Position numbers and translations under genes: made by a program. The notes under the pieces are model-generated. The model had not been told where the DNA came from. It saw only the letters and a list, made by a program, of their open reading frames with translations, and did not search any database. A stretch of 28,881 bases of DNA from an uncultured Saprospiraceae bacterium (GTDB taxonomy: Bacteria > Bacteroidota > Bacteroidia > Chitinophagales > Saprospiraceae), in the NCBI GenBank assembly GCA_964537285.1, contig CAZHZT010000072.1, forward strand, positions 1 to 28,881, in the 5' to 3' direction. Shown in pieces: positions 3,361-28,881 of the stretch. Position 1 is the first letter of the stretch; the number at the start of each line of letters is the position of its first letter.

Positions 3361-3529
3361 CTAGTGCTTCAGGAACTAAATCCTTGATAGCTTTAGGGGC
3401 GATTTTTTTGGTGGCAAACGAGGCGCGAAGAGGGAGCATAGCCCAAAGCTACGTGACCGATGAGCAACGAAGTAGGCCGCCAAAAGAAGCCTTCAAAAGT
3501 GTCAAGGATTTAGTTCCTGAAGCACTAGG
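3361..3529. repeat. MITE-like element. It has 27-bp perfect terminal inverted repeats (ctagtgcttcaggaactaaatccttga ... tcaaggatttagttcctgaagcactag) around a 115-bp partly self-complementary core. It sits in the divergent GT2/lon promoter region.
   Basis: Inverted repeat read directly: 3361-3387 against 3503-3529. Confidence 0.6.
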
Positions 3530-10200: not shown

Positions 10201-10667
10201 AGGGTTCTTTTATAATTGAGGAGTTGACGGACCTGGTGGAAGAAGCTGTCTTAAGTGAATTTGATCGCATCACTGAACGGGGTGGTGTGCTTGGTGCTAT
10301 GGAAACCATGTACCAGCGCAGCAAGATCCAGGAAGAAAGCCTGTATTATGAAACGCTTAAACACACGGGAGAATATCCCATTATTGGTGTAAATACGTTT
10401 TTAAGTAAAGAAGGCTCACCCACGGTTATTCCGCAGGAAGTAATCCGCTCCACTTCGGAAGAAAAAGAAGCTCAAATCAGTACCCGCGATAATTTGCACA
10501 ATGCATCGGCAGAAAAGGGAGCGCAGGCTCTTCGTCAATTGCAGGAGGCATCTATCAATAACCGCAATATCTTTGAAGAATTGATGGAGGCTACAAAATA
10601 CTGCTCTTTGGGGCAGATCACCAATGCCTTGTATGAAGTAGGCGGGCAATATAGGAGGAATATGTAA
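7281..10667 (+). CDS. icmF: Fused isobutyryl-CoA mutase (IcmF): a B12-binding domain, a MeaB-like G-protein chaperone and an acyl-CoA mutase catalytic domain in one 1128-aa polypeptide.
   Basis: N-terminal cobalamin-binding 'DGHDAAINI...GGGG' (DxHxxG-type). Central P-loop GTPase '[17 protein letters not shown]', MeaB/ArgK-like. A C-terminal ~550-aa mutase TIM-barrel region ('YHIAEAG', 'IGVNTF'). The length and domain order match IcmF. Confidence 0.85.
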
Positions 10668-10702
10668 AATGCTTTCCCTGTTCTATTGGGGTAAAAAAAG
10701 AC

Positions 10703-10811
10703 GTTCTTTGACAAATTGTGTGGAACTTTGAAATGATAACCCTTGAATGCCCTTGTGGTTGAAAGGGTTATCATTTTGAAGTTCCATTTTCCACAATTTA
10801 TGTCAAAGAAC
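10703..10811. repeat. Copy 1 of a ~110-bp imperfect palindromic element (gttctttgacaaattgtgtggaactttgaaatgataaccctt ... aagggttatcattttgaagttcc...caaagaac)
   Basis: It is self-complementary, with arms of about 45 nt. It is about 95% identical to the reverse complement of 24409..24518. Confidence 0.75.
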
Positions 10812-10812
10812 T

Positions 10813-10862
10813 AAAAACGAAAGGCCTGTGCTCGCGGATGCGAGCACAGGCCTTTCGTTTTT
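10813..10862. terminator. Strong bidirectional rho-independent terminator (aaaaacgaaaggcctgtgctcgc-ggat-gcgagcacaggcctttcgttttt) after icmF
   Basis: 18-bp GC-rich stem flanked by an A-run and a T-run. Confidence 0.85.
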
Positions 10863-11100
10863 CACCCCAATAAACCTTAACACTTTTTAACTTATGTCGA
10901 ATTTCCTTCTAGGTTTGCCGAGAAAAATAGTCTTACACATCCTTTTGCAATATATTTGAAGCAAATGATAAGTAGAAACAAAAGAAAGTTTTGCGCACTT
11001 TTCCTAATCATTTAATCTACTAACAAATCGACATTTTCCTTTTTTGGCAAAATGGGTGAAAGTGCACCTTTTCTGTCAATGAACTTAAATTTTTTGCGTC

Positions 11101-11775
11101 ATGCTCGAATTACTTAATGCAGCAGTGGCCCCTGAGAGTATTGTGTACACCATTTTGCTTGGGTTAGCCATCCTTTATTGGATTTTCGTTATCATCGGAG
11201 CTCTGGATTTTAGCACTTTTGACTTTGACCTGGATGCAGACCTTGATATGGATATCGATGTGGATGCTGAAATCGATGTGGATGTAGATGCTGACGGAGA
11301 TGTAGTGACTGGTGGAAGCTGGATGGCAGGATTCTTACACTTTTTCAATTTTGGGAAAATGCCCTTTATGGTCATTTTTACTATTTTGATAACCTCTTGC
11401 TGGGCCATTTCCATTATTGCCAATCATTATTTTGGTGGCGGATCAATACTGTTCGCGCTGGCCTTGTTTTTTCCAAACTTATTTGTGAGCCTACTATTAA
11501 CTAAAATTATATCAACACCTTTATTACCATTATTTAAGCACTTTGATAGTGCCGAAGAACCAATTGAATATGTCGGCTTGACCTGCGAATTGACTCTCCC
11601 TGCCTCGAATACAGAGGCGGGGCAAGCCGAGGTTGTTGTTGATGGAAAGTATCTTCTGATCAGTGTTTTAGCTCAGGAAGAAACCAACCATAATTTTTTT
11701 AAAGGCGATAAAGCCTTAATCTGTGGAAAACAAAATGAAAAACCTATTTATCTAATTAAACAGTTGGACAACTAA
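11101..11775 (+). CDS. YqiJ/NfeD-like inner-membrane protein (DUF1449-like) with an acidic DxD repeat and a C-terminal OB-fold (224 aa)
   Basis: Two transmembrane segments and an acidic tract 'DFDLDADLDMDIDVDAEIDVDVDADGD'. The C-terminal 'GQAEVVVDGKYLLISVLAQEE...FFKGDKALICGKQN' resembles the NfeD/YqiJ OB-fold ('FTKGDKVLII' in E. coli YqiJ, as recalled). It sits directly upstream of a flotillin gene, as in yqiJK. Confidence 0.75.
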   Translation: MLELLNAAVAPESIVYTILLGLAILYWIFVIIGALDFSTFDFDLDADLDMDIDVDAEIDVDVDADGDVVTGGSWMAGFLHFFNFGKMPFMVIFTILITSCWAISIIANHYFGGGSILFALALFFPNLFVSLLLTKIISTPLLPLFKHFDSAEEPIEYVGLTCELTLPASNTEAGQAEVVVDGKYLLISVLAQEETNHNFFKGDKALICGKQNEKPIYLIKQLDN

Positions 11776-11854
11776 AAAATGATTTAGATCGTCTGCTAGC
11801 CTTCAACATCTTTTGGTTGTTTTAATTCTAACAATCTAATAACAACTTAAACCT

Positions 11855-14026
11855 ATGGCAACTTATGTATTTATTATCATCGGCGGGGTCATCGTCCTGC
11901 TGAGTGTAGGGATCCTTGCGGCTATCGTTTCCTGGTATAAGAAGACCCCTCAGGGCCAGGCACTGGTTCGAACCGGTAGCGGCGGAACTAAAGTCGCTTT
12001 CGATCGAGGAATCTTTGTCATCCCCGTTCTTCATATGGTCGAAACAATGGAGCTTTCTGTAAAAACCGTCGAAATTGCCCGTATGAAAGAAGATGGGCTG
12101 ATTTGTAAGGACAATATGCGGGCAGACATCAAAGTCGTCTTCTTTGTTCGCGTAAATCAAAACGTCGATGACATTCAGAAAGTGGCTCAAACCATTGGAT
12201 GTATCAGGGCTTCTGACCCCACGACCCTGAACAACCTGTTTGAAGCCAAATTCTCAGAAGCCCTGAAAACCGTTGGTAAACGCTTCGAATTTGTAGAACT
12301 CTACGATAATCGAGAAAAGTTCAAACAAGCTATCATCAACATTATAGGCTCCGATCTGAATGGCTATGTGCTGGATGATTGCGCTATCGACTATTTGGAA
12401 CAGACTCCGATGGAGTTCTTAAAACAAGATAATATCCTTGACTCCGAAGGTATTAAAAAGATTGCTGAACTTACCGCTGTTCAAAAAATCAAGGCCAACC
12501 AAATTCGTCGCGAAGAAGAAAAAACCATTAAAGAACAGAACGTCGAAGCTAAAGAAGCTATCCTTGAATATGATCGACAATTGACGGAAAAAGAAGAACG
12601 TCAAAAAAGGGAAATCGCTAATATCCGCGCTCGCGAAGCGGCTGAAATTGCTAAGATAAATGAAGAAGAAAGGCTGCGTTCTGAGATGGTACGCATCCAA
12701 ACAGAAGAGGAGCTGGCTATAGCCGAAGAAAATAAAGCACGCCAGGTCATTGTTGCTGCCAAAAGTAAGGAACGTACAGAGGCCATCGAAAATGAACGTG
12801 TACAAAAGGATCGCTTATTGGAACAAACCGAACGTGAACGCATCGTTACACTAGCCGAAATCGAAAAGCAGCGGGCCATTGAAGAAGAGAAAAAGAACAT
12901 CCAGGATGTCATCAAAGAGCGAATCATCGTTGAGAAAAAAGTGGTTGAAGAAGAAGAAAAAATTAAAGACACCCGCGAATTGGCAACGGCTAATCGTTCC
13001 AAAGAAGTAGCGTTGATTAAGGCCGATGAAACCGGAGAAGCTACTATAATAAAGCGCCGCAAGGAGGCAGAAGCAGAAAAACTAGCCGCTGAGATCCAGG
13101 CAAAAACCATGTTGATCGAAGCAGAAGCTCAGAAAAATGCAGCCGAAAAAGAAGCGGAAGCTCGTAAAATTAACGCAGAAGCAAAAGCCGCTGAGGAAGC
13201 AACCATTGGCCTGTCTGAAGCTCAAGTCACTGAAGCTAAAGCCAGAGCCAAAGAGGAAGAAGGCAATGTTGAGGCAAAAATCATTGAACAAAAAGCAGTG
13301 GCAGAAGCAAATGGTATCTCAGCGAAAGCAGAAGCTCTCCGCAAACAAGGAAATATGGAAGCCGAAGTATTGTTCGAAAAAGGTCAGTCTGAAGCTAAAG
13401 TCATCGAATTACAATCCCTGGCAAAAGCCAAAGGTACTGCGGAGCAAGGCTCAGCAGAAGCTTCTTCTTTGGAAAGCAAGCTATTAGCTGAAGCTAAAGG
13501 CGTAGAACAGAAAGCCATGGCCATGCAAAAACTGGACGGCGTCGGCAAAGAGCACGAAGAGTTTAAGTTACGCCTGGAAAAAGAAAAAGAAATTGCACTG
13601 GCAAATATCAATATCCAGGCTAAAATCGCTGAAGCACAGGCTCAAGTTCTGGCTGAAGCATTTAAGAAAGCTAATATTGACTTGGTTGGTGGCGAAGCTT
13701 CTTTTGTTAACAACATCCTTAATGCCATTAATCGGGGTAAAACCATCGATGGATTAGTAAATAATAGCGAAGTGCTTTCAGAGTTAAAAAATGGTTTGTT
13801 ATCTAATAATGCTCAAGGCTTGGGTAGCCTGGTTACGCGGCTTCGAAACCTGATTCAGGAAATGGGCATTTCTACAGAAGATATTAAGAACCTGACATTG
13901 TCTTCGCTGCTGCTTAAGTTGCAATCTCAGGCCACCGATGGCAAGCGCTCAATTGTCGAAGATTTGATGAATACAGTGGCTGGTTTGGGCATTGGTGATC
14001 AGGAGGTGAAAGCGTTGCTTTCGTAA
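11855..14026 (+). CDS. Flotillin/SPFH-domain protein, YqiK-like, with an extended Ala/Glu/Lys-rich coiled-coil tail (723 aa)
   Basis: N-terminal TM helix. 'ALVRTGSGGTKVAFDRGIFVIPVLHMVETMELSVKTVEIARMKEDGLICKDNMRADIKVVFFVRVN' is the SPFH/flotillin core. It is followed by about 350 aa of EA-rich heptad repeats. Confidence 0.9.
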   Translation: MATYVFIIIGGVIVLLSVGILAAIVSWYKKTPQGQALVRTGSGGTKVAFDRGIFVIPVLHMVETMELSVKTVEIARMKEDGLICKDNMRADIKVVFFVRVNQNVDDIQKVAQTIGCIRASDPTTLNNLFEAKFSEALKTVGKRFEFVELYDNREKFKQAIINIIGSDLNGYVLDDCAIDYLEQTPMEFLKQDNILDSEGIKKIAELTAVQKIKANQIRREEEKTIKEQNVEAKEAILEYDRQLTEKEERQKREIANIRAREAAEIAKINEEERLRSEMVRIQTEEELAIAEENKARQVIVAAKSKERTEAIENERVQKDRLLEQTERERIVTLAEIEKQRAIEEEKKNIQDVIKERIIVEKKVVEEEEKIKDTRELATANRSKEVALIKADETGEATIIKRRKEAEAEKLAAEIQAKTMLIEAEAQKNAAEKEAEARKINAEAKAAEEATIGLSEAQVTEAKARAKEEEGNVEAKIIEQKAVAEANGISAKAEALRKQGNMEAEVLFEKGQSEAKVIELQSLAKAKGTAEQGSAEASSLESKLLAEAKGVEQKAMAMQKLDGVGKEHEEFKLRLEKEKEIALANINIQAKIAEAQAQVLAEAFKKANIDLVGGEASFVNNILNAINRGKTIDGLVNNSEVLSELKNGLLSNNAQGLGSLVTRLRNLIQEMGISTEDIKNLTLSSLLLKLQSQATDGKRSIVEDLMNTVAGLGIGDQEVKALLS

Positions 14027-14040
14027 TTTTCCATTGCTAG

Positions 14041-14108
14041 CGTTTGGTGAAGGCTGAAGCCTTCGTCGTTGCGGATACTGTGACGAAGGCTTTAGCCTTC
14101 GCCGAACG
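14041..14108. repeat. BIME-like pair of REP-type palindromic units in inverted orientation (cgtttggtGAAGGCTgaAGCCTTCgtc ... gacGAAGGCTttAGCCTTCgccgaacg). They lie in the flotillin-to-ATPase intergenic spacer.
   Basis: The unit family matches the palindrome carried by the 74-bp tandem repeats at 28627..28881. Confidence 0.7.
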
Positions 14109-14156
14109 TAATATAAAACGTCAAACTGCATCAACCACATTTTAAAGTTGCTTATA

Positions 14157-17100
14157 ATGACAAATAACCCTTCCAATGAACTAGAGAGAGGCAGTTATGA
14201 AATCATACGGAATCGACTCCATAAACAAAGTCAAGAACTTCAAAATCGCCTCGATAAACTCAATAACCTCAGAAAAAAAGTCTTTGGAAACGTTGAGTTC
14301 AAACTCGTTTCCAACGATCGCATCAATACCTCTAATTATTGTATTGCCAGAGATATTGCCGCTTTTGGCAATTACTGCCTCTTTGGATATAACGTGCAGA
14401 TTGGCTTGCGCTCAGAGACCACCCTGCGCGATGTCTTTAGCCTCTACCAATACAAAGATCAGCGTTTCCAGGAACAAGAGCTGACACTCCTAAACGATGA
14501 CAAGTTTAAAGCGGATTTTAAAAACCTTTATAGATATTATAGAAATGCCTTCTTTACAAAATTTGTAAAACAAGGACCTTTCCTTTATATGGTATTCCAG
14601 CTCTCTGACAAAGTCGGGGATTACAAATCATTTAAATGGCTACAAAAAGAAGAGCACTTGGAGTATGTCGATGGCCGAAGTGAACATGAGCTTAAACGTC
14701 CGGATCAATATGAATTCCAATGGACCCGGGCACATCGCGAAATGTATCGCAATGGAGAACATCCCCACATTTCCATCCTCGACAGGGTGTTTGTCGAAAC
14801 AGTAGGCGGAGATCTGACCATTAAAATTGAAGATAATACATCTGATGGACTGGGTATCTATCGCGAGGATGTGGAACATGCCGAGCAAACCCTTGATGAT
14901 GCGGAGTATTTCTTTGCCGACCTTGGCAACATGATCGCCCTGAAAATCAAGCCTTACCAGGAGGCATTTCGCTACTTTATTTTTAATGATAAAACACAAC
15001 AAGTCCAAAGAATTGATGCTCTGGGAGAATCTGGAATCTTATTACCGGATCGCCAGGGCTTGGTATTCCCGAATGGCTATTATTTGCAATCCGGAGATTA
15101 TAAGATCTTCAATCCCGATCTTAAAAAAAAGCATTTTGAGAAAAGAATCGTTTCCTCCAATGGCGAAGACTTTCTCTATGTCTTTTTTAATGATGAAAAA
15201 GGAACTTATGTTATTCTCCCCTACAACATTATTGAGCAAAAGGCAAACATTCCTATATACTGTAACGGGTTTACCTTATTTCCCAATGGAGAACTGGCCA
15301 TTTTCAGAAGTGAAAACGAACCTACTAAACATCATGTCATTCAGATTTGGCAAACCCCCTTTCTAAAAGGAGAACCTGCCCCTTCCCAGCATTCTGATGA
15401 ATTCATATTCAAAATTGGCAACAAGGAAGTGGTTAAGGCTATGGCTGAAATCAATGACGTACTTATCCTTTGCAGGAAAGAAGATTCATACGCCAATTTG
15501 TATGACGATATCCTTAAGGAGTCTACGGATATTCTGGATTCCTTCCACTGGTTGAATCAGGAAAGTACATTCAGAATTGATGAGCCAGTTACTGCCATCA
15601 AAGACATTGCCGCTACGGCTATTGAAGCCTTCGAGAAAAAAGTAGATGCAGAACGAGCAACAAAACAAGAAGTCGAAAAAGTTAACCAATCCTCTCAAAC
15701 GCTTTTTGATAAAATTAAGCGGGCTAACTTCGAATCTGTTGAAGAATACGTCAATACACTCACTCAACTGAGGCAGCTCAGGGGAGAAATCATCTCGCTT
15801 AAGGATCTACGCTATGTGGACGCTGAATTCGTTGACACCCTTGAAAAACAAACCAAAACATTTTTAGCTAAACTTTCTGAAGAGTGTGTCGGCTTTTTGC
15901 TGCAAGACGATGCGCTTTCCCCCTACGAATCCAAAATAAAAGAACACGATGTCCGGATAAAGGAAATCACGACGGTAAAAATTGCCAATGATCTCGAAGA
16001 GGACATTAATAGCACAGGGGCGGCCTTGGAACTACTTATCGATGTAGTAAGCAACCTTAAGATCGAAGATACCACCCAAACTACCCGCATTATTGATAAC
16101 ATTTCCGCACTTTATGTACAATTAAACCAATTAAAGGCTTCTGTTAAAAAAGAAGCCAAAGCCTTGGCAACCAAAGAAGCTTCCGCAGCTTTTGGTGCTC
16201 AATTAAAGTTAATAGATCAAGCTTTAGTCAATTATTTAGACCTGGCTGTCAGCCCTGAAAAATGCGACACCTACCTCACCAAATTGATGGTCCAGATCGA
16301 AGAACTGGAAGGAAAATTTATTGAACTGGATGACTTCATTGAAGAAATTGGTGAGAAAAGAACCCATATATTTTCCGCTTTTGATCAAAAAAAGGCTAGG
16401 CTCCTTGAGGAACGCAACAACCGCACAGCTGCCATTGAGCGTGCCATTGACCGAATGTCGGAAAGCATCCAGAACCGGGCGAATGCTTTATCCGATAAAA
16501 ACGAGATCAACGCCTTCTTCTCTTCTGACCTGATGGTGGACAAGGTTCGGGACCTGATCAGCCAACTCAGAGAGCTTCAGGATAGCAATAAAGCAGATGC
16601 TGCTCAAACCCAATTGAAGCGTTTAAAAGAAGAAGCTCTGCGGCAATTAAGAGATAAAACAGAACTCTATCTGGAAGGTGGAAGCCTCATTCGCTTTGGC
16701 AAACATACTTTCAGCGTCAATATCCAACCCCTCGAACTTACGATGGTAAATCGCGAAGATGCGCTTTTACTTCATCTTACCGGGACGAGTTTTTTCATGC
16801 CTCTGGAAGAACCTGAATTAATAGACACCCAATCTGTTTGGAAGCAAGCTTTGCCTTCAGAAAACGAAACGGTTTACCGAGGAGAGTTTCTGGCTTATTC
16901 CATTTTTAAAAATAAAAATGGCCTTGGAAATAATACAAACTGGGAGGCTTTTGTAAAAGAGGAGGCACAAAGCCGTTATCAGGAAGGATATGTGAAAGGC
17001 GTGCATGATCAGGATGCCGAAAACATCCTAAAAGCCTTGCTGGAATTAGATCGTTCAGTTGGGCTGCTAAGGTTTGCCCCCGATGTCCGTGCATTGGCAC

Positions 17101-19037
17101 GCTATTTCTGGGAGTTACAAATAGACGTTGAAAATCGTGCCTTGTTCCAAGAGCAATTGAAGAGTGCAGGCATGATCCGCCGGTTTTTCCCAACCACCCA
17201 TGAATTTGATTACCTGATCGAAGATATTGAAGGAGTGCTGCGAGCTGAAAGTCGAGATCAACTTATTCGGGCATTCAATAACACAAATGATAAGCTGAGC
17301 AAAGTTGCGCAATATTTATTTTACCAACTTTCAGATGGAGAATCCTTCGTTATCTCTCCGGAAGCTGCTGGTTTATACGATAATTTTAAAAAGTATTTGA
17401 ACATCCAGAAAGGCGATTCCATCTATCAGAATTCCATTGCTGAGCTGGAAAAACATCCGCTGGAACAATTTCAATTGATCAAAAAATGGATGATGGCTTT
17501 CTTGCATCAGCAAAGTTTAACGGATGCCATTCCTTTCCTGAATGAGACCAGCATTTTGCTGCTTTTAGAACCGGAAAACTATTCTAAAAAAGCTGTACTA
17601 AACGCCAAAACTACTTTAAAGCTTGAAAACTTACACGGCGATCACCCTGTTATTGTAAACAACGAATACAAACTTGACTTTCTGGACTTTACAGAAAAAA
17701 TGGAGCATTTTCACAATGAAAGGCTTCCTCTATTCAATCGATTTCAAGAAGCCAAAAGAGGTGTATTGCATAAATATCGGCAAAAACTACAGCTAGAGTC
17801 TTTCAAGCCCAGGGTGCTAAGCTCCTTCGTCCGTAATAAACTAATTGACAAAGTCTATCTCCCTATCATTGGAGATAATCTGGCGAAGCAAATTGGTGTT
17901 GCAGGAGAAAACACCCGAACAGATCGCATGGGTTTGCTCTTACTGATCTCCCCTCCAGGTTATGGCAAGACAAGCCTGATGGAATACGTTGCGAATCAGC
18001 TTGGTTTGATTTTCATGAAAATCAATGGCCCCGCAATTGGTCACAGAGTAACTTCTCTTGATCCTAAGGAAGCACCTAACCGGGCTGCTGCCCAAGAACT
18101 GAACAAGCTCAACCTGGCTTTGGAAATGGGCGATAACATCATGCTTTACCTCGATGATATCCAGCATTGTCACGCCGAGTTTTTGCAAAAATTCATCTCT
18201 TTATGCGATGCTCAACGTAAGATCGAAGGTGTATTCAAGGGGGAAAGCAAACAATACGACCTAAGAGGAAAGCGGGTTTGTGTAGTCATGGCCGGAAACC
18301 CATACACAGAGAGCGGTGAAAAGTTTAAAGTTCCCGACATGCTTGCAAACAGAGCGGATATTTATAATTTGGGAGATATTATCGGAGATACCGAGCACCT
18401 TTTCAAACTAAGTTACATTGAAAATGCGCTAACATCGAATAGTACTCTTCAGCAGTTGGTAAATAAGAGCAACGAGGACATGCACCAACTCATTGAAGTG
18501 GCTGCTACCGGGAATCAGGAGAGCCTGCAACTGGAAGCTGATTATGGAACTGGAGAAGTCGAGGATTATCTATCGGTGCTAAAAAAGCTTATCCTTATCC
18601 GGGACGCTCTGTTTAAGGTCAATAAAAACTATATTCAATCGGCAGCAATGGCTGACGATTATCGCTCTGAACCCGCATTTAAGCTTCAAGGATCATACAG
18701 AGACATGAACAAACTGGCCGAAAAAGTAGTACCCCTTATGAATGAAAAAGAGGTATCTGCTTTGTTATTAACGCATTATGAAAGCGAAGCTCAAACATTA
18801 ACTACAGGAGCAGAAGCTAATTTTTTAAAACTTAAAGAAATCCTAGACCTTATCCAGGCAGACGAGAAGAAACGCTGGGAAGAAATTAAGCATACTTTCC
18901 AGAAAAATAAACTGTTTAGAGGTGGCAATGGCGACAATCCAGTGGCCCAGGCAGTGGCGCAGTTGGGTATGCTTACCGATGAGCTGGAAGGGATAAAAAA
19001 GGCTTTGAATAGCAATAAAGAGGAGGCTGGCTCATAA
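14157..19037 (+). CDS. Giant uncharacterised protein (~1626 aa from the first ATG; the ORF-track start at 14148 is a TTG) with a C-terminal MoxR/AAA_5-like AAA+ ATPase module
   Basis: Walker A 'LLLISPPGYGKTSLMEY' (about nt 17958). Walker B 'IMLYLDDIQHCHAE', parallel to MoxR 'LLDEINRA..E' but with DD. Sensor-1 'VVMAGNPYT', parallel to the AAA_5 'ATQNP/TMNP' motif. An Arg-finger/helix-2-insert region 'DMLANRADIYNLGDI'. The N-terminal ~1250 aa have no motif I can recognise and contain coiled-coil stretches in the middle. Confidence 0.85.
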   Translation: MTNNPSNELERGSYEIIRNRLHKQSQELQNRLDKLNNLRKKVFGNVEFKLVSNDRINTSNYCIARDIAAFGNYCLFGYNVQIGLRSETTLRDVFSLYQYKDQRFQEQELTLLNDDKFKADFKNLYRYYRNAFFTKFVKQGPFLYMVFQLSDKVGDYKSFKWLQKEEHLEYVDGRSEHELKRPDQYEFQWTRAHREMYRNGEHPHISILDRVFVETVGGDLTIKIEDNTSDGLGIYREDVEHAEQTLDDAEYFFADLGNMIALKIKPYQEAFRYFIFNDKTQQVQRIDALGESGILLPDRQGLVFPNGYYLQSGDYKIFNPDLKKKHFEKRIVSSNGEDFLYVFFNDEKGTYVILPYNIIEQKANIPIYCNGFTLFPNGELAIFRSENEPTKHHVIQIWQTPFLKGEPAPSQHSDEFIFKIGNKEVVKAMAEINDVLILCRKEDSYANLYDDILKESTDILDSFHWLNQESTFRIDEPVTAIKDIAATAIEAFEKKVDAERATKQEVEKVNQSSQTLFDKIKRANFESVEEYVNTLTQLRQLRGEIISLKDLRYVDAEFVDTLEKQTKTFLAKLSEECVGFLLQDDALSPYESKIKEHDVRIKEITTVKIANDLEEDINSTGAALELLIDVVSNLKIEDTTQTTRIIDNISALYVQLNQLKASVKKEAKALATKEASAAFGAQLKLIDQALVNYLDLAVSPEKCDTYLTKLMVQIEELEGKFIELDDFIEEIGEKRTHIFSAFDQKKARLLEERNNRTAAIERAIDRMSESIQNRANALSDKNEINAFFSSDLMVDKVRDLISQLRELQDSNKADAAQTQLKRLKEEALRQLRDKTELYLEGGSLIRFGKHTFSVNIQPLELTMVNREDALLLHLTGTSFFMPLEEPELIDTQSVWKQALPSENETVYRGEFLAYSIFKNKNGLGNNTNWEAFVKEEAQSRYQEGYVKGVHDQDAENILKALLELDRSVGLLRFAPDVRALARYFWELQIDVENRALFQEQLKSAGMIRRFFPTTHEFDYLIEDIEGVLRAESRDQLIRAFNNTNDKLSKVAQYLFYQLSDGESFVISPEAAGLYDNFKKYLNIQKGDSIYQNSIAELEKHPLEQFQLIKKWMMAFLHQQSLTDAIPFLNETSILLLLEPENYSKKAVLNAKTTLKLENLHGDHPVIVNNEYKLDFLDFTEKMEHFHNERLPLFNRFQEAKRGVLHKYRQKLQLESFKPRVLSSFVRNKLIDKVYLPIIGDNLAKQIGVAGENTRTDRMGLLLLISPPGYGKTSLMEYVANQLGLIFMKINGPAIGHRVTSLDPKEAPNRAAAQELNKLNLALEMGDNIMLYLDDIQHCHAEFLQKFISLCDAQRKIEGVFKGESKQYDLRGKRVCVVMAGNPYTESGEKFKVPDMLANRADIYNLGDIIGDTEHLFKLSYIENALTSNSTLQQLVNKSNEDMHQLIEVAATGNQESLQLEADYGTGEVEDYLSVLKKLILIRDALFKVNKNYIQSAAMADDYRSEPAFKLQGSYRDMNKLAEKVVPLMNEKEVSALLLTHYESEAQTLTTGAEANFLKLKEILDLIQADEKKRWEEIKHTFQKNKLFRGGNGDNPVAQAVAQLGMLTDELEGIKKALNSNKEEAGS

Positions 19038-19074
19038 GTATGTTCGTCGCAGCTGGCCTCCTCTTAAATAATGG

Positions 19075-19563
19075 CTATGAATTTTGCGAATACTGAGACT
19101 TCTTGTAATCTGGCTCCACAGGCACCCGGCCTTTCCATGAATCCGGAACCAACTCTTTGCGGATGTCCAAATCTCTAATCGCCCTTAAAATATCCACCCG
19201 ACTGACTTGCCCTACTAAACGCCCCTGGTCCATTACAGGCAATCGTTTAAGCCCTTTATGAAGGAAGAGATAGGCCGCATCAAATATCGTTTTATCTGCA
19301 CCTATCGTTTGTATTTGAGTAGACATATAGGCACTGACGACACCTGCCTGGCCAGGCTCTTTGTTATACATATCATCGACGAGAAGTTTCAGGCAATCAG
19401 CTTCTGAGAGCATGCCCACTAATTCATTCGCGTCATTTACAACCGGAGATCCGGAAATCCCTTTTTTAAGGAATGTATTGATGGCGTGCAAGATAGGCGT
19501 ATCGGGTTTGAAGGTGATCAAGGAAGTCGCCATGTAATTTACAAGAAGAGGGAATTTTTTCAT
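19075..19563 (-). CDS. CBS-domain pair protein (162 aa). An alternative start at MATSLITF, coordinate 19533, is possible.
   Basis: Two CBS motifs: '...FKPDTPILHAINTFLKKGISGSPVV' and 'QTIGADKTIFDAAYLFLHKGLKRLPVMDQGRLVGQVSRVDILRA'. Confidence 0.8.
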   Translation of the reverse strand: MKKFPLLVNYMATSLITFKPDTPILHAINTFLKKGISGSPVVNDANELVGMLSEADCLKLLVDDMYNKEPGQAGVVSAYMSTQIQTIGADKTIFDAAYLFLHKGLKRLPVMDQGRLVGQVSRVDILRAIRDLDIRKELVPDSWKGRVPVEPDYKKSQYSQNS

Positions 19564-19678
19564 AATTTGCTAGTTTTTGTGACAGATTAGCATTTAATTT
19601 ACAAAAAAATAACCATAAATTCAACTAAATCCTTCCGCCATCGAAAACTTAAATTCTACCATAGCTTATATTGATCAA

Positions 19679-21196
19679 TTGTTGTTGAGTAAAAATGCCT
19701 TCATCAAGATCAATAGCTTTGATGCGAAGTACCTTCAATCAAAAGAACCTGCTTTTGTAATCTCAAACAGGCGATTCACCGAAGCAGATGAACTCATTTT
19801 GATTAAACTGCTCCTCTCTTATACTCCAAACTTTAAAATCCTTACCACTCATCCCCATTATTTGAACCATCCCTTGCTAAAGCCTTATTTTTATGAGCCT
19901 TTTGCCTATCAATTTCAAAAAATAAACCTTCCTTCCACCTCTACCGCCATCCGGCAGTCCATAGAAGCGGTTATTTCTGAAGGTAAGAGTTGCGTAATCG
20001 TAATGGATTACGCCATCAAGCGGCTGGGAACACTGAATCGGCTCCAGCAAAACTGGCGGATTATGAGGTGGGTAAAAAAAGCTAAGCTTCCTATTGTGCC
20101 GATCAATTTTTTTTCTGAACATCTCAACCCTAACAACGCCAGCATTTCTGTCAGAGTTGGCAAGCCCATTTCGCCGGAAGTGCAAAAGATGTTTAAATCC
20201 TACAGGAGGTTTGGAAAGTTTGTCCAGCTTAAAGTCATGGCCCTGGGCTCTTCCCTGGAAGTACGAAATTTCTACCACCAAATCGATTCCGCTAAAAATG
20301 TTAAAGAAGCAGTTGCTCCTGCTATTTCAAGTGAACTCATTGAGGCAGAAATTGAGCAATTAACCTACGAGAACTTAGTAGCCAGCCGATCCGACTTTGA
20401 TGTCTTCGTTGCAGGGGCATTTAAGATCCCTAACATCTTGAAGGAAATTGGCCGCTTGCGGGAACTTACCTTTAGAGAAGTAAATGAAGGAACAGGCTAC
20501 AGTAGAGATTTAGATGAATACGACCTTTACTACCAGCAACTTATAATTTGGGATAGAAAAGCTAAGAAAATTGTAGGAGGGTATCGACTAGGCTTAGGGG
20601 ACGAAATTTTCAATCGATTTGGGGTAGAGGGCTTTTACATCAACAGCCTTTTTAAAATTGAGAAAGGTTTTTATCCAATCATGAAAGACGCGGTTGAACT
20701 TGGGAGGTCTTATGTAGTGAAAGAGTACCAAAAACATCGCTTACCTTTGTTTTTGTTATGGAAAGGAATACTCCATTTTTTATTAAAAAACCCACGTTAT
20801 CGTTATCTTTATGGCCCTTTGAGTATAAGTAAACACTATTCTGATTTGTCGAAAAGTCTGATTATTGAGTTCGTCAAGAAGTATTATTTTGATAAAAAAC
20901 TGGCGAAACACCTTGAGCCCCGAACACCTTTCGTGTTTAAAGTCCCCAAAGCAGATATTGACCTGATACTGGACAGTTTAGAAAACAATATAGGAGAATT
21001 GGATAATTTCATTGAAGATATCGAACCCGATCATTTCAGGCTTCCGGTACTATTGAAGCAATACATCAAACAAAACGCTAGATTTATCAGCTTTAATGTG
21101 GACCCTAATTTTTCCGATGTTCTGGATGGTTTTATGATCCTCGATTTAAAGAATGTGCCTTATTCCACCATTGAAGCATTAAAGAAAGAACAATAA
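19679..21196 (+). CDS. Two-domain acyltransferase. The N-terminal domain is PlsC/LPLAT-like with degenerate catalytic motifs. The C-terminal domain is an OlsB-like GNAT N-acyltransferase ('hemolysin-like'). It is possibly OlsF-like or in the glycine/ornithine-lipid family. It has a non-ATG start (TTG).
   Basis: C-terminal 'LRELTFREVNEGTGYSRDLDEYDLYYQQLIIWD' is the signature of OlsB/PF13444. N-terminal 'FVISNRRFTEAD' occupies the position of PlsC motif I (NHxxxxD) and 'LPIVPI' matches motif IV. There is no in-frame ATG before residue ~109. Confidence 0.65.
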   Translation: MLLSKNAFIKINSFDAKYLQSKEPAFVISNRRFTEADELILIKLLLSYTPNFKILTTHPHYLNHPLLKPYFYEPFAYQFQKINLPSTSTAIRQSIEAVISEGKSCVIVMDYAIKRLGTLNRLQQNWRIMRWVKKAKLPIVPINFFSEHLNPNNASISVRVGKPISPEVQKMFKSYRRFGKFVQLKVMALGSSLEVRNFYHQIDSAKNVKEAVAPAISSELIEAEIEQLTYENLVASRSDFDVFVAGAFKIPNILKEIGRLRELTFREVNEGTGYSRDLDEYDLYYQQLIIWDRKAKKIVGGYRLGLGDEIFNRFGVEGFYINSLFKIEKGFYPIMKDAVELGRSYVVKEYQKHRLPLFLLWKGILHFLLKNPRYRYLYGPLSISKHYSDLSKSLIIEFVKKYYFDKKLAKHLEPRTPFVFKVPKADIDLILDSLENNIGELDNFIEDIEPDHFRLPVLLKQYIKQNARFISFNVDPNFSDVLDGFMILDLKNVPYSTIEALKKEQ

Positions 21197-21199
21197 CAC

Positions 21200-22342
21200 A
21201 TGCAAATAAAATCCAAATTGCCGAATGTCGGCACGACCATTTTCACCACCATGTCTGCTCTGGCCAATCAGCATCAGGCCATCAACCTCTCGCAAGGTTT
21301 CCCTAATTTCGATTGCTCCGAACGATTGAAAAAACTGGTCTTCCAATACATGGAAAAAGGCTATAACCAATACGCACCAATGGCAGGCGTACCTGACTTA
21401 AGGTACCAAATTGCTCAAAAAGTAAAAAAATTATACGAAGCTGATATTGACCCCAACACCGAAATCACTATAACAGCAGGTGCTACACAGGCTTTATTTA
21501 CAGCCTTAGCAGCCTTCGTCCGCCCAGGCGATGAAATCATTCTGATTGAACCCGCTTACGATTGTTACAAGCCGGCAATTGAATTAAACGGTGGCATTCC
21601 GGTTGCTTATGAGCTTAAAGCTCCGGATTTCCGCATAGACTGGAAGGTACTAGCGACCCTGGTCAATGAAAAGACCAAGGCAATTATGCTGAACACTCCC
21701 CACAATCCTAGCGGCCGGACCCTTAAAGCAGCTGATCTCCAACAACTAGAGCAATTGGTTGCAGGTAAGGAAATCATGGTGATCAGTGATGAAGTCTACG
21801 AGCATTTGGTATTCGATGATTTGCCTCACGAAAGTATATTGCGTTACCCAAAACTTAGGGAGCAATTCTTCGCCACTTATTCTTTCGGGAAGACATTTCA
21901 CAATACAGGCTGGAAAGTGGGTTATTGCATAGGCCCCGAACCATTAATGGCAGAATTCAGAAAAGTGCATCAGTACAACGTTTTCTCTGTCAATACGCCC
22001 GTACAGTATGCACTAGCGGAGTTTCTTCAGGATGAATCGGAGTATCTTAGCCTCAATAGTTTCTATCAAGCGAAACGAGATCGATTCCTTCCTTATTTAG
22101 AGCAATCTCGATTTGAGCCGATCCCCTGCGAAGGCACTTATTTTCAACTAGCCAAATACTCAAACTTAAGCGATGAGCCAGATACGGCGTTTACGCAACG
22201 ATTGATCGTGGAAAACGGGATTGCGACGATCCCAATCTCCGTTTTTTATTCTAGTGGCCTGAATGAACACATTGTCCGTTTCTGCTTCGCAAAAACAGAT
22301 GATCTGCTGGATCGTGCCGGAGAAGTTATAGCAGGGATTTAA
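21200..22342 (+). CDS. PLP-dependent class-I aminotransferase, YbdL/methionine-aminotransferase-like (380 aa)
   Basis: 'SFGKTFHNTGWKVGYC' holds the PLP-Lys motif and is nearly identical to the YbdL region. The gene also has 'LNTPHNPSG' and sits 3 nt after the acyltransferase gene. Confidence 0.85.
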   Translation: MQIKSKLPNVGTTIFTTMSALANQHQAINLSQGFPNFDCSERLKKLVFQYMEKGYNQYAPMAGVPDLRYQIAQKVKKLYEADIDPNTEITITAGATQALFTALAAFVRPGDEIILIEPAYDCYKPAIELNGGIPVAYELKAPDFRIDWKVLATLVNEKTKAIMLNTPHNPSGRTLKAADLQQLEQLVAGKEIMVISDEVYEHLVFDDLPHESILRYPKLREQFFATYSFGKTFHNTGWKVGYCIGPEPLMAEFRKVHQYNVFSVNTPVQYALAEFLQDESEYLSLNSFYQAKRDRFLPYLEQSRFEPIPCEGTYFQLAKYSNLSDEPDTAFTQRLIVENGIATIPISVFYSSGLNEHIVRFCFAKTDDLLDRAGEVIAGI

Positions 22343-22344
22343 AT

Positions 22345-22386
22345 AAACATGAGGCATCCTGAAAATTTGGGATGACTCATGTTTAT
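22345..22386. terminator. Second copy of the 40-nt hairpin family (aaacatgaggcatcctg-aaaatt-tgggatgactcatgttt), placed between convergent genes
   Basis: It differs from copy 1 (88..128) by 3 substitutions. These keep pairing through G-U wobbles, so they are compensatory. Confidence 0.65.
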
Positions 22387-22391
22387 TCATG

Positions 22392-23285
22392 TTAGAGATG
22401 CTCTACTAACAAGGCCAGCTTAATTGCCCTCTCCCGATCATCATGCTCCAGCGCTTCCATCGCTTTCTGATGCAAAGCCTCCAAAGGTTGTTCTTGTTGC
22501 AGAATAGTCTGAATAGCCTCTTCTTCCTTTAATGCCAAAATCGCTTCTTTACCAGGTAATTCCAAAACGCCTGCAAGTTGACCAATAGCATTTCCCGTTA
22601 GCACCTTACTTTCGCGAATACTCTGGGGCAACTGATCGTAACCAATACTAAGTTTCGTAACAGGCTGCACAATAGTATGTACAGCCGGGCCACTGGCACG
22701 TACATAATAAGCTCTTCCCATACGGCCCATTAAATCAATTTTATGTGGATCGATGCGGTTTCTTTCTCCAAGGATTTCTTCATTAATGTGCATACGCAAG
22801 ACCCTGCACAGCATTAGATTTCCTGCTCCGCCATGTTCTCCCAGCGGAATGATCTGCTCTACGCGGCATTCCATGTGTACCGGCGATTCCTTCACGCGAA
22901 AAGGCTTTACTAAATCTGAAGGTATTGGCGTAAGCCCTGCTTTTTCAAACTCATTAATATCTTGCTCCCACTCAATGCTTGTAATGGTCATTTGACGAAC
23001 AATAGAGTGATTAACCACATTTATCACCGCTTCACGGGTCTTTTCAATGTTGTGAAGCGTATCCTTTGTAGTATTATTCAAAACCCTGCGATTGGAAGAA
23101 AAAATCACCATCGGAGGATTCGAACTAAAAGCATTGAAAAAACTATATGGTGCCAGGTTGGGCTTACCGTTCTCATCAACGGTACTTACAAAAGCAATTG
23201 GGCGTGGAGCTACCGCACCGAGGAGGAACTGGTGCATGTCTTTGGTAGCCGTATTTTCCGGATCTACAATTAGCATATTTGACAT
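22392..23285 (-). CDS. Flavin-reductase-like (FMN-binding split-barrel) domain protein with a C-terminal extension (297 aa)
   Basis: 'FLLGAVAPRPIAFVSTVDENGKPNLAPYSFFNAFSSNPPMVIFS' is the PF01613 flavin reductase-like core. Confidence 0.8.
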   Translation of the reverse strand: MSNMLIVDPENTATKDMHQFLLGAVAPRPIAFVSTVDENGKPNLAPYSFFNAFSSNPPMVIFSSNRRVLNNTTKDTLHNIEKTREAVINVVNHSIVRQMTITSIEWEQDINEFEKAGLTPIPSDLVKPFRVKESPVHMECRVEQIIPLGEHGGAGNLMLCRVLRMHINEEILGERNRIDPHKIDLMGRMGRAYYVRASGPAVHTIVQPVTKLSIGYDQLPQSIRESKVLTGNAIGQLAGVLELPGKEAILALKEEEAIQTILQQEQPLEALHQKAMEALEHDDRERAIKLALLVEHL

Positions 23286-23368
23286 TTTTGTTTTTATGCC
23301 AAGTTAAAGAAGTTATTGGATTTTATGGGAATAATTTATATTAGTCTTATTCTATAAGTGCCTGTACA

Positions 23369-24217
23369 TCATTTTTCACGCTTATCATAGCCAAATATTT
23401 TCGTATCCTTTTTCTTCCCAAACCAGACAACGCGGTTCGATGTTAAATAAACTTCTCCCTCCGTTTCAGGTAAGCCAATTAAAAAGTACGTCGCTTCGGC
23501 CCTAAACTTTGGATTGTAAACGTTAATGGTCTTGTCTTTTTGCCATAAAATATTTCCTTCGAAGGCTTGTATACCTCTTATACCATCGCCAAGGGGATGC
23601 ATTGAAGCCCATTGAGCGAAAAGGTCAAATAATATAAGGGAGGACTCCTGTTCATCTTGCTCGATTAGAAAAACAAAATTACCATACTCCCAAAGTTTCT
23701 TTGCATTTAATCGCTTGCCAATCTGCTGAACAAGGGGGCCACTTCGAAAAAGCTTTTCCCCTTTTCGGTTTATTTTAAGTAGCTCTGCATTGATATCATC
23801 GTATATCCATAGATTACCATCATTGGCTAAGGCAATGGCACTTACTAAAGTATATCCAAGGTCTACCAAGTTAATCTGGGCGGTAGGGTTTAGAGTTCGA
23901 TCCAGAAAAAGAACGGTTCCGAAATCTTTATAAAAAAGTAGGATCTCCAAGGGATTGTTGACATTTATGGAGTGAAGCCGCCCTCTGCGCACATCACTAT
24001 GCCGAAATTGCTCGACACCATCTGAATTATACTTAATCAAATCGTTGGCAGGAGTGATTAGGTATAACTGGCCTACTTTGTCCATTTTGACATCAACAGC
24101 TCTCTGGGATAGCGTGATGGATTCTTGGAGTATTAGGGTATCAAGGATCGTCTGAGCTTGAATACTATACGATAATACTGCAATGGAGAAAACAAGAAGA
24201 GGCGAAGCGTTTTTCAT
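23369..24217 (-). CDS. Secreted hypothetical protein (about 282 aa from MKNASPLL). The ORF-track start at 24283 adds 22 non-signal residues.
   Basis: Signal peptide 'MKNASPLLVFSIAVLSYSIQAQ'. No recognisable catalytic motif. Its tryptophan-rich, repetitive character suggests a beta-rich fold. Confidence 0.6.
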   Translation of the reverse strand: MKNASPLLVFSIAVLSYSIQAQTILDTLILQESITLSQRAVDVKMDKVGQLYLITPANDLIKYNSDGVEQFRHSDVRRGRLHSINVNNPLEILLFYKDFGTVLFLDRTLNPTAQINLVDLGYTLVSAIALANDGNLWIYDDINAELLKINRKGEKLFRSGPLVQQIGKRLNAKKLWEYGNFVFLIEQDEQESSLILFDLFAQWASMHPLGDGIRGIQAFEGNILWQKDKTINVYNPKFRAEATYFLIGLPETEGEVYLTSNRVVWFGKKKDTKIFGYDKREK

Positions 24218-24408
24218 GATGGTAGTGTTATAACATCCAAAACGTTTATTATTTGCAGAAAGTATTAAGCAAATTAGGTGCATTTCATTTTGTCGCTGCC
24301 CAAACTACACTTACTCACTTTCCCATAACACTTACTCAATGCTCCGGTATTTAACCCAATTCTGCTGCATTTTTGGATTGTAAGTAGTTCACGGAATTAT
24401 TAATCATA

Positions 24409-24518
24409 GTTCTTTGACATAAATTGTGGAAAATGGAACTTCAAAATGATAACCCTTTCAGCCACAAGGGCATTCAAGGATTATCATTTTGAAGTTCCGC
24501 ACAATTTGTCAAAGAACG
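24409..24518. repeat. Copy 2 of the ~110-bp palindromic element, in inverted orientation relative to copy 1. It ends 23 nt upstream of the VIT-vWA gene start.
   Basis: It is the reverse complement of 10703..10811 with a handful of mismatches. Confidence 0.75.
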
Positions 24519-24540
24519 TTAATCATTAAATCTTCAATCC

Positions 24541-27537: not shown

Positions 27538-27540
27538 TTA

Positions 27541-27677
27541 ATCACAGATTACGCAGAGGACACAGATGAGGGTGGAGCTACGCTCCAATTAGATGATTAA
27601 GTCGGCCTGCGGCCGATAAGACTCCTTCTTTGGAGCGTAGCTCCAACACCATCTGTGCCCTCTGCGTAATCTGTGAT
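27541..27677. repeat. 137-bp near-perfect palindrome with 28-nt outer arms (1 mismatch), inner arms ggagctacgctccaa/ttggagcgtagctcc, and centre tcggcctgcggccga. It starts immediately after the VIT-vWA stop codon.
   Basis: Read directly from the sequence. It could form a hairpin of about 60 bp. Confidence 0.7.
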
Positions 27678-27691
27678 CAAACACAAGAAAA

Positions 27692-28626: not shown

Positions 28627-28881
28627 CTGTTCGGCGAAGGCTACAGCCTTCGCCATTCTAAACGCAAAAATCTGTTTTGCGGACTTGTATAACACTTGCA
28701 TCGTTTGGCGAAGGCTACAGCCTTCGCCATTCTAAACGCAAAAATCTGTCTCGCGGACTTGTATAACACTTGCATCGTTTGGCGAAGGCTACAGCCTTCG
28801 CCATTCTAAACGCAAAAATCTGTCTCGCGGACTTGTATAACACTTGCATCGTTTGGCGAAGGCTACAGCCTTCGCCATTCT
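28627..28881. repeat. Tandem array of a 74-bp unit, at least 3.4 copies, truncated by the window end. Each unit carries the REP-like palindrome GGCGAAGGCTacaAGCCTTCGCC plus an A/T-rich segment with an ACTTG-n6-ACTTG direct repeat. The array begins about 20 bp upstream of the LytTR regulator start codon.
   Basis: The palindrome copies start at 28633, 28707, 28781 and 28855, giving a period of exactly 74. The units are near-identical, with 2-3 substitutions in copy 1. Confidence 0.85.

Follow-up and report, generated by a model that had tools for sequence, protein, structure and literature searches.

An inverted pair of palindromic elements on a Saprospiraceae contig, very probably two insertions of a dispersed MITE

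Two copies of a palindromic element lie in opposite orientation on a contig of an uncultured Saprospiraceae bacterium, enclosing a block of approximately 13.6 kb that carries a flotillin-like/ATPase gene cluster. The arrangement raises the question of whether the pair bounds a segment that was inserted or can invert, or whether the copies are MITEs of a kind scattered more widely. The window analysed here is the entire 28,881-bp NCBI contig, from a Saprospiraceae/Lewinellaceae-like member of the Bacteroidota.

Structure and boundaries of the element

The preliminary description had reported two palindromic elements of about 110 bp in opposite orientation, which we confirm. Pairwise alignment of 10701-10813 with the reverse complement of 24407-24519 gave 108 identities over 113 positions, an inverted-repeat scan of the window returned the same intervals as arms (113 nt, 96% complementary), and BLAST within the window matched the copies with an E-value of 6.7e-50, detecting no third copy in the 28,881 bp. 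All five differences between the copies are transitions, and the longest perfectly identical run is 54 nt. Each copy is an imperfect palindrome with hairpin potential (RNA fold of -57.7 kcal/mol, z = -12.2 against shuffles, for copy 1; -54.0 kcal/mol, z = -11.3, for copy 2), the arms being 77–96% complementary along the entire length and the internal arms pairing almost perfectly.

Both ends of both copies carry terminal inverted repeats (TIRs), GTTCTTTGACA ... TGTCAAAGAAC, with a core of 11 nt; the outermost bases, C and (on the other strand) A, make this an imperfect inverted repeat with ends of the form (C/A)GTTCTTTGACA. A check for target-site duplications (TSDs) around each copy, as the preliminary description had proposed, returned a best flanking repeat of 8 nt for both, at an offset of 1 nt outside GTTC...GAAC, matching at 8/8 positions in copy 2 and at 7/8 in copy 1. 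A perfect 8-mer flank repeat at any of 49 offsets was present at 28 of 20,000 random loci, and a joint flank match with at most one mismatch at a shared offset at none of 20,000 random pairs. The TSDs were read at the DNA level in these two copies only, and that of copy 1 sits in an A-run. Since the TSDs set the boundaries, the unit is 111 nt long (10702-10812 and 24408-24518), and the coordinates first given, 10703-10811 and 24409-24518, were correct to within 1–2 nt. The features are as follows.

10694..10701, no strand: left TSD of copy 1, AAAAAAGA, a 7/8 match to 10813-10820 with offset and length as in copy 2
10702..10812, plus strand: putative MITE copy 1, 111 nt, short-type end on the left (CGTTCTTTGACAAATTGTG...) and long-type end on the right (...CCACAATTTATGTCAAAGAACT)
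10703..10713, plus strand: TIR core GTTCTTTGACA, with partners at 10801-10811, 24409-24419 and 24507-24517
10813..10820, no strand: right TSD of copy 1, AAAAACGA, shared with the terminator stem, of which it forms nt 1–8
10813..10862, plus strand: terminator-like hairpin with a perfect 23-bp stem, A-tract before and T-tract after, downstream of the IcmF-like gene
24400..24407, no strand: left TSD of copy 2, TTAATCAT, 8/8
24408..24518, minus strand: putative MITE copy 2, 111 nt, in reverse-complement orientation relative to copy 1
24519..24526, no strand: right TSD of copy 2, TTAATCAT, 8/8

The element is non-coding and has no capacity to encode a transposase. Five of its six reading frames contain stop codons in one or both window copies; the sixth is open, with conservation that is confined to the element and no Pfam match.

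Copies at other loci and the proposed origin of the pair

A protein-database search with the translated element added 13 copies, each on an NCBI contig of its own. Twelve of the matches are small ORFs (41–97 aa) that start M[IT][TSI]LSATRAFK.YHFEVPHNLSKN and are then wholly divergent, while the thirteenth (P0123), an S4-domain protein of 162 aa, takes its N-terminal 27 residues from the element; P0123 was also the sole match when the other five reading frames were concatenated and used as the query. All 13 are NCBI-only singletons from contigs of differing length, with an element-derived start of 24–27 residues followed by unrelated flanks, and appear as spurious or over-extended ORFs. The codon after ...GAAC begins with G in 11 of the 12 small ORFs, and likewise in both window copies, which provides independent confirmation of the element boundary deduced from the TSDs; over the 14 copies compared the terminal base is fixed and the sequence beyond the element end is variable. 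Most copies have unrelated flanks and no gene context in common. With the two in the window this amounts to at least 15 loci, a count taken across contigs that may come from more than one genome. The preliminary description had held that dozens of copies throughout the genome, together with identical gene order in related genomes, would identify an ordinary dispersed MITE or REP; the expectation of many copies is borne out in part, by the 15 or more loci counted over database contigs.

Exact-word scans returned no match to a 21-mer of the long end among JGI metagenome contigs and, for three k-mers in IMG/VR, one chance match of 20 nt and no element copy; BLAST in distant mode against plasmids and phages also gave no match to the element. 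An 18-mer from the stem had at least 32 matches among genome contigs, of which those listed were all chance matches of 18–21 nt, and a gapped TIR pattern found no copy among the matches listed for genome contigs.

All four element–flank junctions are contained in the window contig, and the three that could be read in a separate Logan assembly of SRR7048223 all agree with it. The Logan contigs end within the element, precisely at the point from which the two copies no longer differ, and they break at every inverted repeat. The repeat breaks short-read assemblies of this lineage, and masking it is advisable; it is also a source of spurious small ORFs and has led to the wrong extension of at least one gene start, that of P0123.

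We consider it very likely that the element is an ordinary dispersed MITE of a new family, of which the window contains two separately inserted copies. The preliminary description had offered scattered MITEs as one of its alternatives, and it is this one that the TIRs, the 8-bp TSD belonging to each copy and the 13 or more further copies on other contigs support. Because each copy has its own TSD, the two are best regarded as independent insertions and not as a single composite unit; as separate insertions of a dispersed MITE, they would not mark the edges of a special gene block. Mobility is deduced from the TSDs and the dispersal; no autonomous element with matching ends turned up, the window encoding no transposase, and no empty site was seen in the relatives compared, whose gene order differs around both sites. 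We propose that the TIRs (core GTTCTTTGACA) would be recognised in trans by a transposase, probably of the DDE type, whose gene would lie at another place in the genome. Cuts in A/T-rich intergenic DNA, offset from each other by 8 bp, would have let the unit insert, and their repair would leave 8 bp of target directly repeated on its two sides. Copy 1 would have entered at the 5' edge of the IcmF-like terminator hairpin and copy 2, in a separate event, 14–22 nt ahead of the start codon of VIT-vWA; the expected pre-insertion (empty) sites are GGGGTAAAAACGAAAGGCC and GGAATTATTAATCATTAAATC. The opposite orientation of the copies around the 13.6-kb block would then be coincidental, the element being a high-copy one that occurs twice in these 29 kb. 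ISL3 or IS1595 was considered as the presumed parent, given the 8-bp TSD and what we take to be a resemblance between the TIRs, and we claim no assignment.

Comparison with known repeats

Bacterial MITEs are defined as multicopy, non-coding elements of 50–1000 bp with TIRs and TSDs of 2–10 bp (PMC4596501; bioRxiv 10.1101/2024.01.18.576219). The present element resembles them in its length of 111 bp, A/T-richness, TIRs, 8-bp TSDs, lack of a transposase and at least 15 dispersed intergenic copies, but differs in having no sequence similarity in the plasmids, phages, IMG/VR and JGI metagenomes searched. The Correia elements (NEMIS) of Neisseria are approximately 100–155 bp long with 26-bp TIRs and a TA duplication, form a hairpin RNA that RNase III cleaves, and are able to carry promoters. 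They share with our element a similar size, an almost fully self-complementary hairpin, positions near gene starts and ends, and the potential for co-transcription; however, the element described here has an 8-bp TSD in place of TA, is unrelated in sequence, belongs to a different phylum and in the sequence analysis gave no sign of promoter activity or RNA processing. The Porphyromonas gingivalis MITEs BrickBuilt, MITE239 and MITE464/PgRS contain tandem repeats between TIRs of the IS5 type (GAGACCTTTGCA), and their TSDs are short and variable (PMC4596501). They are similar in occurring in Bacteroidota, in being intergenic and in causing assembly breaks, at approximately 10–20 copies per P. gingivalis genome (PMC4596501), whereas ours is a simple hairpin that has GTTCTTTGACA at its ends and is flanked by TSDs of 8 bp. 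With such TSDs it would represent an additional MITE family for Saprospiraceae-like Bacteroidota; in the literature searched, no paper was found that joins 'MITE' and Saprospiraceae in a relevant sense.

REPINs are REP doublets mobilised by RAYT transposases, and they have neither a TSD nor transposon-type TIRs with a defined terminal base; REP/REPIN insertion proceeds by Y1 transposition, which does not duplicate the target site. Like REPINs, the element is a hairpin-forming intergenic repeat of approximately 100 nt with many copies, and it might be a repeat of this or another hairpin type, spread by RAYT (IS200/IS605-like Y1) or non-transpositionally and not by a DDE enzyme. Its long hairpin, nearly perfect over some 110 nt, its place beside a terminator and the company of other repeated-palindrome families on the contig would all fit such an origin. 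We nevertheless consider it improbable, as 8-bp duplications flank both copies and the ends form a defined TIR with a fixed terminal base, beyond which the sequence varies across 14 copies. The REP/REPIN class itself requires insertion without a TSD and association with a RAYT gene, and was rejected on the first count, TSDs being present at both copies.

The enclosed block and the neighbouring genes

It could also be proposed that the pair delimits a mobile or invertible segment of 13.6 kb, either as a composite-transposon-like unit or as a block flipping by recombination between the copies. The copies are inverted and share 54 nt of perfect identity, long enough for occasional homologous recombination given the minimal homology of RecA, and the genes between them form a compact cluster. 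However, a matching TSD is found at each copy separately, and the outer flanks AAAAAAGA and TTAATCAT differ, so that there is no shared outer TSD and the block was not inserted as a whole; the flanks are moreover unswapped, and there has thus been no net inversion since insertion. The block is also similar to its flanks in composition (GC 41.6% compared to 41.9% and 42.8%; tetranucleotide correlations 0.94 and 0.91), the 18 ORFs of the window include no transposase, integrase, invertase or recombinase domain, the elements themselves are non-coding, and 13 or more further loci carry the element. Homologues of IcmF, at 84% identity at best, have completely different neighbours and no adjacent VIT-vWA gene, although synteny is absent in general, and OlsF-like homologues in JGI metagenomes, at no more than 57% identity, have no shared neighbours. 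A composite transposon or IS-bounded segment was rejected on the lack of a common outer TSD and the non-coding nature of the bounding elements, and a site-specific invertible segment of the inverton or shufflon type on the unswapped TSDs and the lack of a recombinase domain in the 18 ORFs. The suggestion in the preliminary description that the copies may bound a segment that was inserted or can invert is not sustained by the separate TSDs, unswapped flanks, flank-like composition and lack of a recombinase or transposase; such an origin of the arrangement is largely refuted, and we give it very little probability.

Among the genes first listed for this block, the DUF3686 AAA ATPase, CBS, OlsF/GlsB-like acyltransferase, aminotransferase and flavin-reductase-like assignments were borne out by Pfam/NCBIfam, while the flotillin and NfeD labels were not: searches of Pfam, NCBIfam and PDB sequences found nothing for the 723-aa 'flotillin', and the 'NfeD' gene has only a sub-threshold match to YqiJ_N. 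The pair does not set the limits of the 13.6-kb flotillin-like/ATPase cluster as those of a mobile element, so it gives no grounds for a story of horizontal transfer or phase variation.

If the copies are two insertions of a dispersed MITE, they may still affect the genes beside them. Copy 1 starts 34 nt past the stop codon of the IcmF-like gene (10667), directly before the hairpin at 10813..10862, which on its sequence is a bidirectional intrinsic-terminator-like site with copy 1 at its 5' edge. Relative to copy 2 it has two adjacent transitions, its sole changes in the main paired arm, which convert Watson-Crick to G-U pairs on the strand co-transcribed with IcmF, and it may act as a hairpin in the IcmF 3'-UTR. 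The long-type end of copy 2 faces a 304-aa gene (start 24283, minus strand), and 22 nt separate its short-type end from the downstream VIT-vWA ATG (24541), so that the native upstream region is displaced by 119 bp; copy 2 could supply VIT-vWA with an element-borne promoter or a structured leader. At the P0123 locus, an S4/Hsp15-like gene probably has its true start approximately 25 nt beyond the end of the element copy.

That the element is primarily a cis-regulatory or RNA module (a portable promoter, terminator, RNA-stability hairpin or small RNA) whose position before VIT-vWA was selected, as the placement of the copies before VIT-vWA and the S4-domain gene and the G-U pairs of copy 1 might suggest, is extremely unlikely: most copies have unrelated flanks and no common gene context, no Rfam family was matched at gathering score (below it there was only generic miRNA-model hairpin noise), a sigma-70 scan, which does not cover the differing Bacteroidota consensus, found no plus-strand promoter-like site facing VIT-vWA and a sole match (TTGACA-18-AATGAT) that is directed into the element, and inspection by eye revealed no convincing TAnnTTTG / TTTG arrangement. 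There is a slight chance that the dispersed element serves as a portable outward promoter or structured leader, being 22–25 nt upstream of starts in the two copies with a known downstream gene, and that in addition the inverted pair, with its 54-nt core, lets RecA now and then invert the 13.6-kb membrane-ATPase block.

Structure and insertion sites of the element pair

A repeat search of the window returned one outstanding inverted pair, 10701–10813 and 24407–24519 (113 nt, 96% complementary), and BLAST within the window, which matches the two copies at E = 6.7e-50, found no third. They share 108/113 identities in pairwise alignment, with a longest identical run of 54 nt and five differences that are all transitions, and the similarity ends sharply at either side. 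Each copy is an imperfect palindrome, predicted to form one long hairpin as a single strand (-57.7 kcal/mol for copy 1 and -54.0 for copy 2; z = -12.2 and -11.3 against dinucleotide shuffles), confirming the preliminary description of two palindromic elements lying as reverse complements. The ends of the element differ from each other but have a common core, GTTCTTTGACA; the "short" end reads GTTCTTTGACAAATTGTG(T/C)GGAAC and the "long" end GTTCTTTGACATAAATTGTGGAAAATGGAAC, and the plus-strand layout is flank-[short...long]-block-[long...short]-flank, the block being the sequence between the copies. The sole copy 1 changes in the main paired arm are two adjacent transitions at 10729–10730 (TG in copy 1, CA in copy 2), which convert two Watson-Crick pairs to G-U wobbles on the strand co-transcribed with the preceding IcmF-like gene and would give A-C mismatches on the opposite strand; with only two copies this pattern may be due to chance.

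Target-site duplications (TSDs), for which a check around either copy had been proposed, were sought at boundary offsets of -3 to +3 on either side and lengths of 4–12 nt. The best flank repeat, an 8-bp duplication, lies one base beyond GTTC...GAAC at the identical position in the two copies:

Copy 1: AAAAAAGA, C-GTTC...GAAC-T, AAAAACGA (7/8 matching)
Copy 2: TTAATCAT, A-GTTC...GAAC-G, TTAATCAT (8/8 matching)

Of 20000 random loci simulated on the window, 28 had a perfect 8-mer at one or more of the 49 offsets; of 20000 random pairs, none matched jointly at a common offset with one mismatch or fewer. The position and length of the TSDs thus define a unit of 111 nt, at 10702–10812 and 24408–24518. 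The copy 1 target, AAAAACGA, makes up the initial 8 nt of a terminator-like hairpin whose 23-bp stem is perfect (10813–10862), placing this copy between the IcmF stop codon and the IcmF terminator. The pair has different outer flanks (AAAAAAGA on one side, TTAATCAT on the other), and the left flank of copy 1 likewise differs from the inner flank of copy 2 read as its reverse complement. The pair was therefore not inserted as a single composite unit, and there has been no net inversion of the block since the two insertions.

The intervening block and its neighbours

Genes in the window, which is a complete NCBI contig (28881 bp), were identified by Pfam and NCBIfam.

Genes flanking and between the two element copies
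Upstream of copy 1: Lon protease; CarboxypepD_reg-like protein
7281–10667, upstream of copy 1: IcmF-like gene (fused B12-binding/MeaB/methylmalonyl-CoA-mutase)
11101–11775, first between copies: 224-aa membrane protein, sub-threshold match to YqiJ_N only (E = 2.7e-4, 21.5 bits against a cutoff of 23)
11855–14026, second: 723-aa protein, no family match
Third: 1629-aa DUF3686/DUF7902/AAA ATPase
Fourth: CBS-pair protein
Fifth: OlsF/GlsB-like acyltransferase
Sixth: class I/II aminotransferase
Seventh: flavin-reductase-like protein
Eighth: 304-aa protein, no family match
Downstream of copy 2: VIT-vWA protein (24541–27537); LytTR response regulator

The labels proposed earlier for the giant ATPase and the CBS, acyltransferase (OlsF/GlsB-like), aminotransferase and flavin-reductase-like genes were upheld, whereas those of flotillin (723 aa) and NfeD (224 aa) were unverified by sequence profiles; for the 723-aa protein, even permissive thresholds brought no match in Pfam, NCBIfam or the PDB sequences.

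The suggestion that the pair delimits a segment that was inserted or can invert is unsupported, since each copy has its own TSD, the outer flanks are unmatched, the block resembles its flanks in composition (GC 41.6%, compared to 41.9% and 42.8%; tetranucleotide r = 0.94 and 0.91, compared to 0.90 between flanks), and no window ORF carries a transposase, integrase or invertase domain in Pfam or NCBIfam. The best IcmF homologues, at no more than 84% identity, belong to Saprospiraceae, Lewinellaceae or Phaeodactylibacter MAGs, and on the contigs carrying the closest of these the neighbours are wholly different on either side. OlsF-like relatives in JGI metagenomes (≤ 57% identity) have no neighbour gene in common with the window. 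Most window proteins checked are also present in the Logan assembly of SRR7048223, which agrees at the three element-flank junctions inspected. Within the element, the contigs of this assembly break precisely where the copies become identical; as they also break at other inverted repeats of the window, these breaks are uninformative regarding copy number or heterogeneity of orientation.

Dispersed copies and identity of the element

At the DNA level, two scans of genome contigs gave only chance 18–21-mers among the matches listed, one scan of metagenome contigs and three of IMG/VR gave nothing real, and BLAST did not find the element in plasmid or phage sequences. One frame is open across the element in the copy 2 plus-strand orientation, with an internal ATG (MITLSATRAFKDYHFEVPHNLSKN), and its peptide was searched against two protein collections. 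The word-indexed collection returned two small ORFs, and the remaining five frames, joined into one query, yielded a further match, the 162-aa protein P0123; exhaustive HMMER over 1.84 billion representatives gave 11 true matches and one obvious false positive. In all there are 13 matches, P0123 and 12 ORFs of 41–97 aa, every one an NCBI-only singleton, on 13 contigs of 3.5–136 kb. In alignment all 12 small ORFs start M[IT][TSI]LSA.R.FK.YH.EV..NL.KN and continue into wholly unrelated sequence. The first codon past ...GAAC begins with G in 11 of the 12, in agreement with the terminal base deduced from the TSDs and thus independent support for the element boundary.

The alternative reading, of MITEs (small non-coding mobile repeats) scattered genome-wide, was therefore right, with 13 further copies, in unrelated flanks, on 13 contigs; we assume that these contigs and the window all derive from one MAG. 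An ORF is called only if the flank is by chance open for at least ~17 codons and lacks a competing real gene. Neither window copy produces one or is among the 13 matches (their flanks would read ...SKNVNH* and ...SKNVFFYPN), hence the true copy number probably exceeds 15 several-fold.

The anatomy of the element fits bacterial MITEs as usually described (PMC4596501; bioRxiv 10.1101/2024.01.18.576219): it is 111 nt long, A/T-rich and non-coding, with terminal inverted repeats, 8-bp TSDs and at least 15 dispersed intergenic copies. It represents a family not described before, within a very familiar class of elements, and its Saprospiraceae-like host lineage has been poorly sampled; no relevant paper linking MITEs and Saprospiraceae was found in the literature searched. 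The TSDs argue against a REPIN/RAYT-type origin. Most likely the element would be mobilised by a DDE transposase acting in trans and making 8-bp staggered cuts. Among the IS families that generate 8-bp duplications are ISL3, IS1595, IS256, IS6, IS66, IS1 and ISAs1.

Two of the matches merit separate description. The copy in P0123, on a 22488-bp NCBI contig, either carries two long ends or has its central loop in the opposite orientation with respect to the long end. It ends ~25 nt upstream of M36, the probable true start of an S4-domain, Hsp15-like gene, and the gene caller placed the ORF start 35 residues further upstream, within the element, a case of MITE-caused mis-annotation together with a small hairpin-loop inversion. 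In P0136, an element-derived ORF on an NCBI contig of 3506 bp, the flank translates to ...GLEHLPYKQGVVGSNPSSPTK, which resembles read-through of the T-arm of a tRNA gene, and this copy probably lies ~120 nt from such a gene.

Neighbouring genes and other repeats

Regulatory side effects of the copies are plausible. In the IcmF 3'-UTR, the transcript of copy 1 is expected to form a hairpin predicted at -58 kcal/mol. Because of copy 2, the native upstream region of VIT-vWA now lies 119 bp further off, so transcription of that gene would have to begin within the element or else pass through a hairpin of -54 kcal/mol. A scan for sigma-70-type promoters, a type distinct from those of Bacteroidota, detected no promoter-like site directed at VIT-vWA and only an inward-facing TTGACA-18-AATGAT at the short end of both copies; inspection by eye found no good TAnnTTTG / TTTG arrangement. 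No Rfam family reached its gathering score, and the matches below that score were only generic hairpin noise.

The window contains several other repeats. A 40-nt palindrome (AAACATGAG.CATCC...GGGATGACTCATGTTT) at 89–128 and 22345–22384 (93% identity) looks like a family of repeated terminators or REP-like hairpins; the aminotransferase (stop 22342) and flavin-reductase-like (stop 22392) genes converge on its second copy, and a Logan contig breaks inside the first. Directly after the VIT-vWA stop codon, 27538–27680 is a 143-nt palindromic unit (51-nt arms 90% complementary, 41-nt centre) flanked by TTAATCA / TGATCAA, which could be a large terminator or another MITE-like element, unrelated to the first. 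A 47-nt inverted repeat (3361–3407 / 3482–3528, 81% complementary, 74-nt spacer), intergenic and upstream of lon, coincides with a Logan contig end. The window itself ends, upstream of the LytTR response-regulator gene, in ~3.4 tandem repeats of a 74-nt unit (28629–28881) that probably terminated the contig; each unit contains the 24-nt palindrome TGGCGAAGGCTACAGCCTTCGCCA, and two related palindromes lie at 14041–14108, between the 723-aa and DUF3686 ATPase genes.
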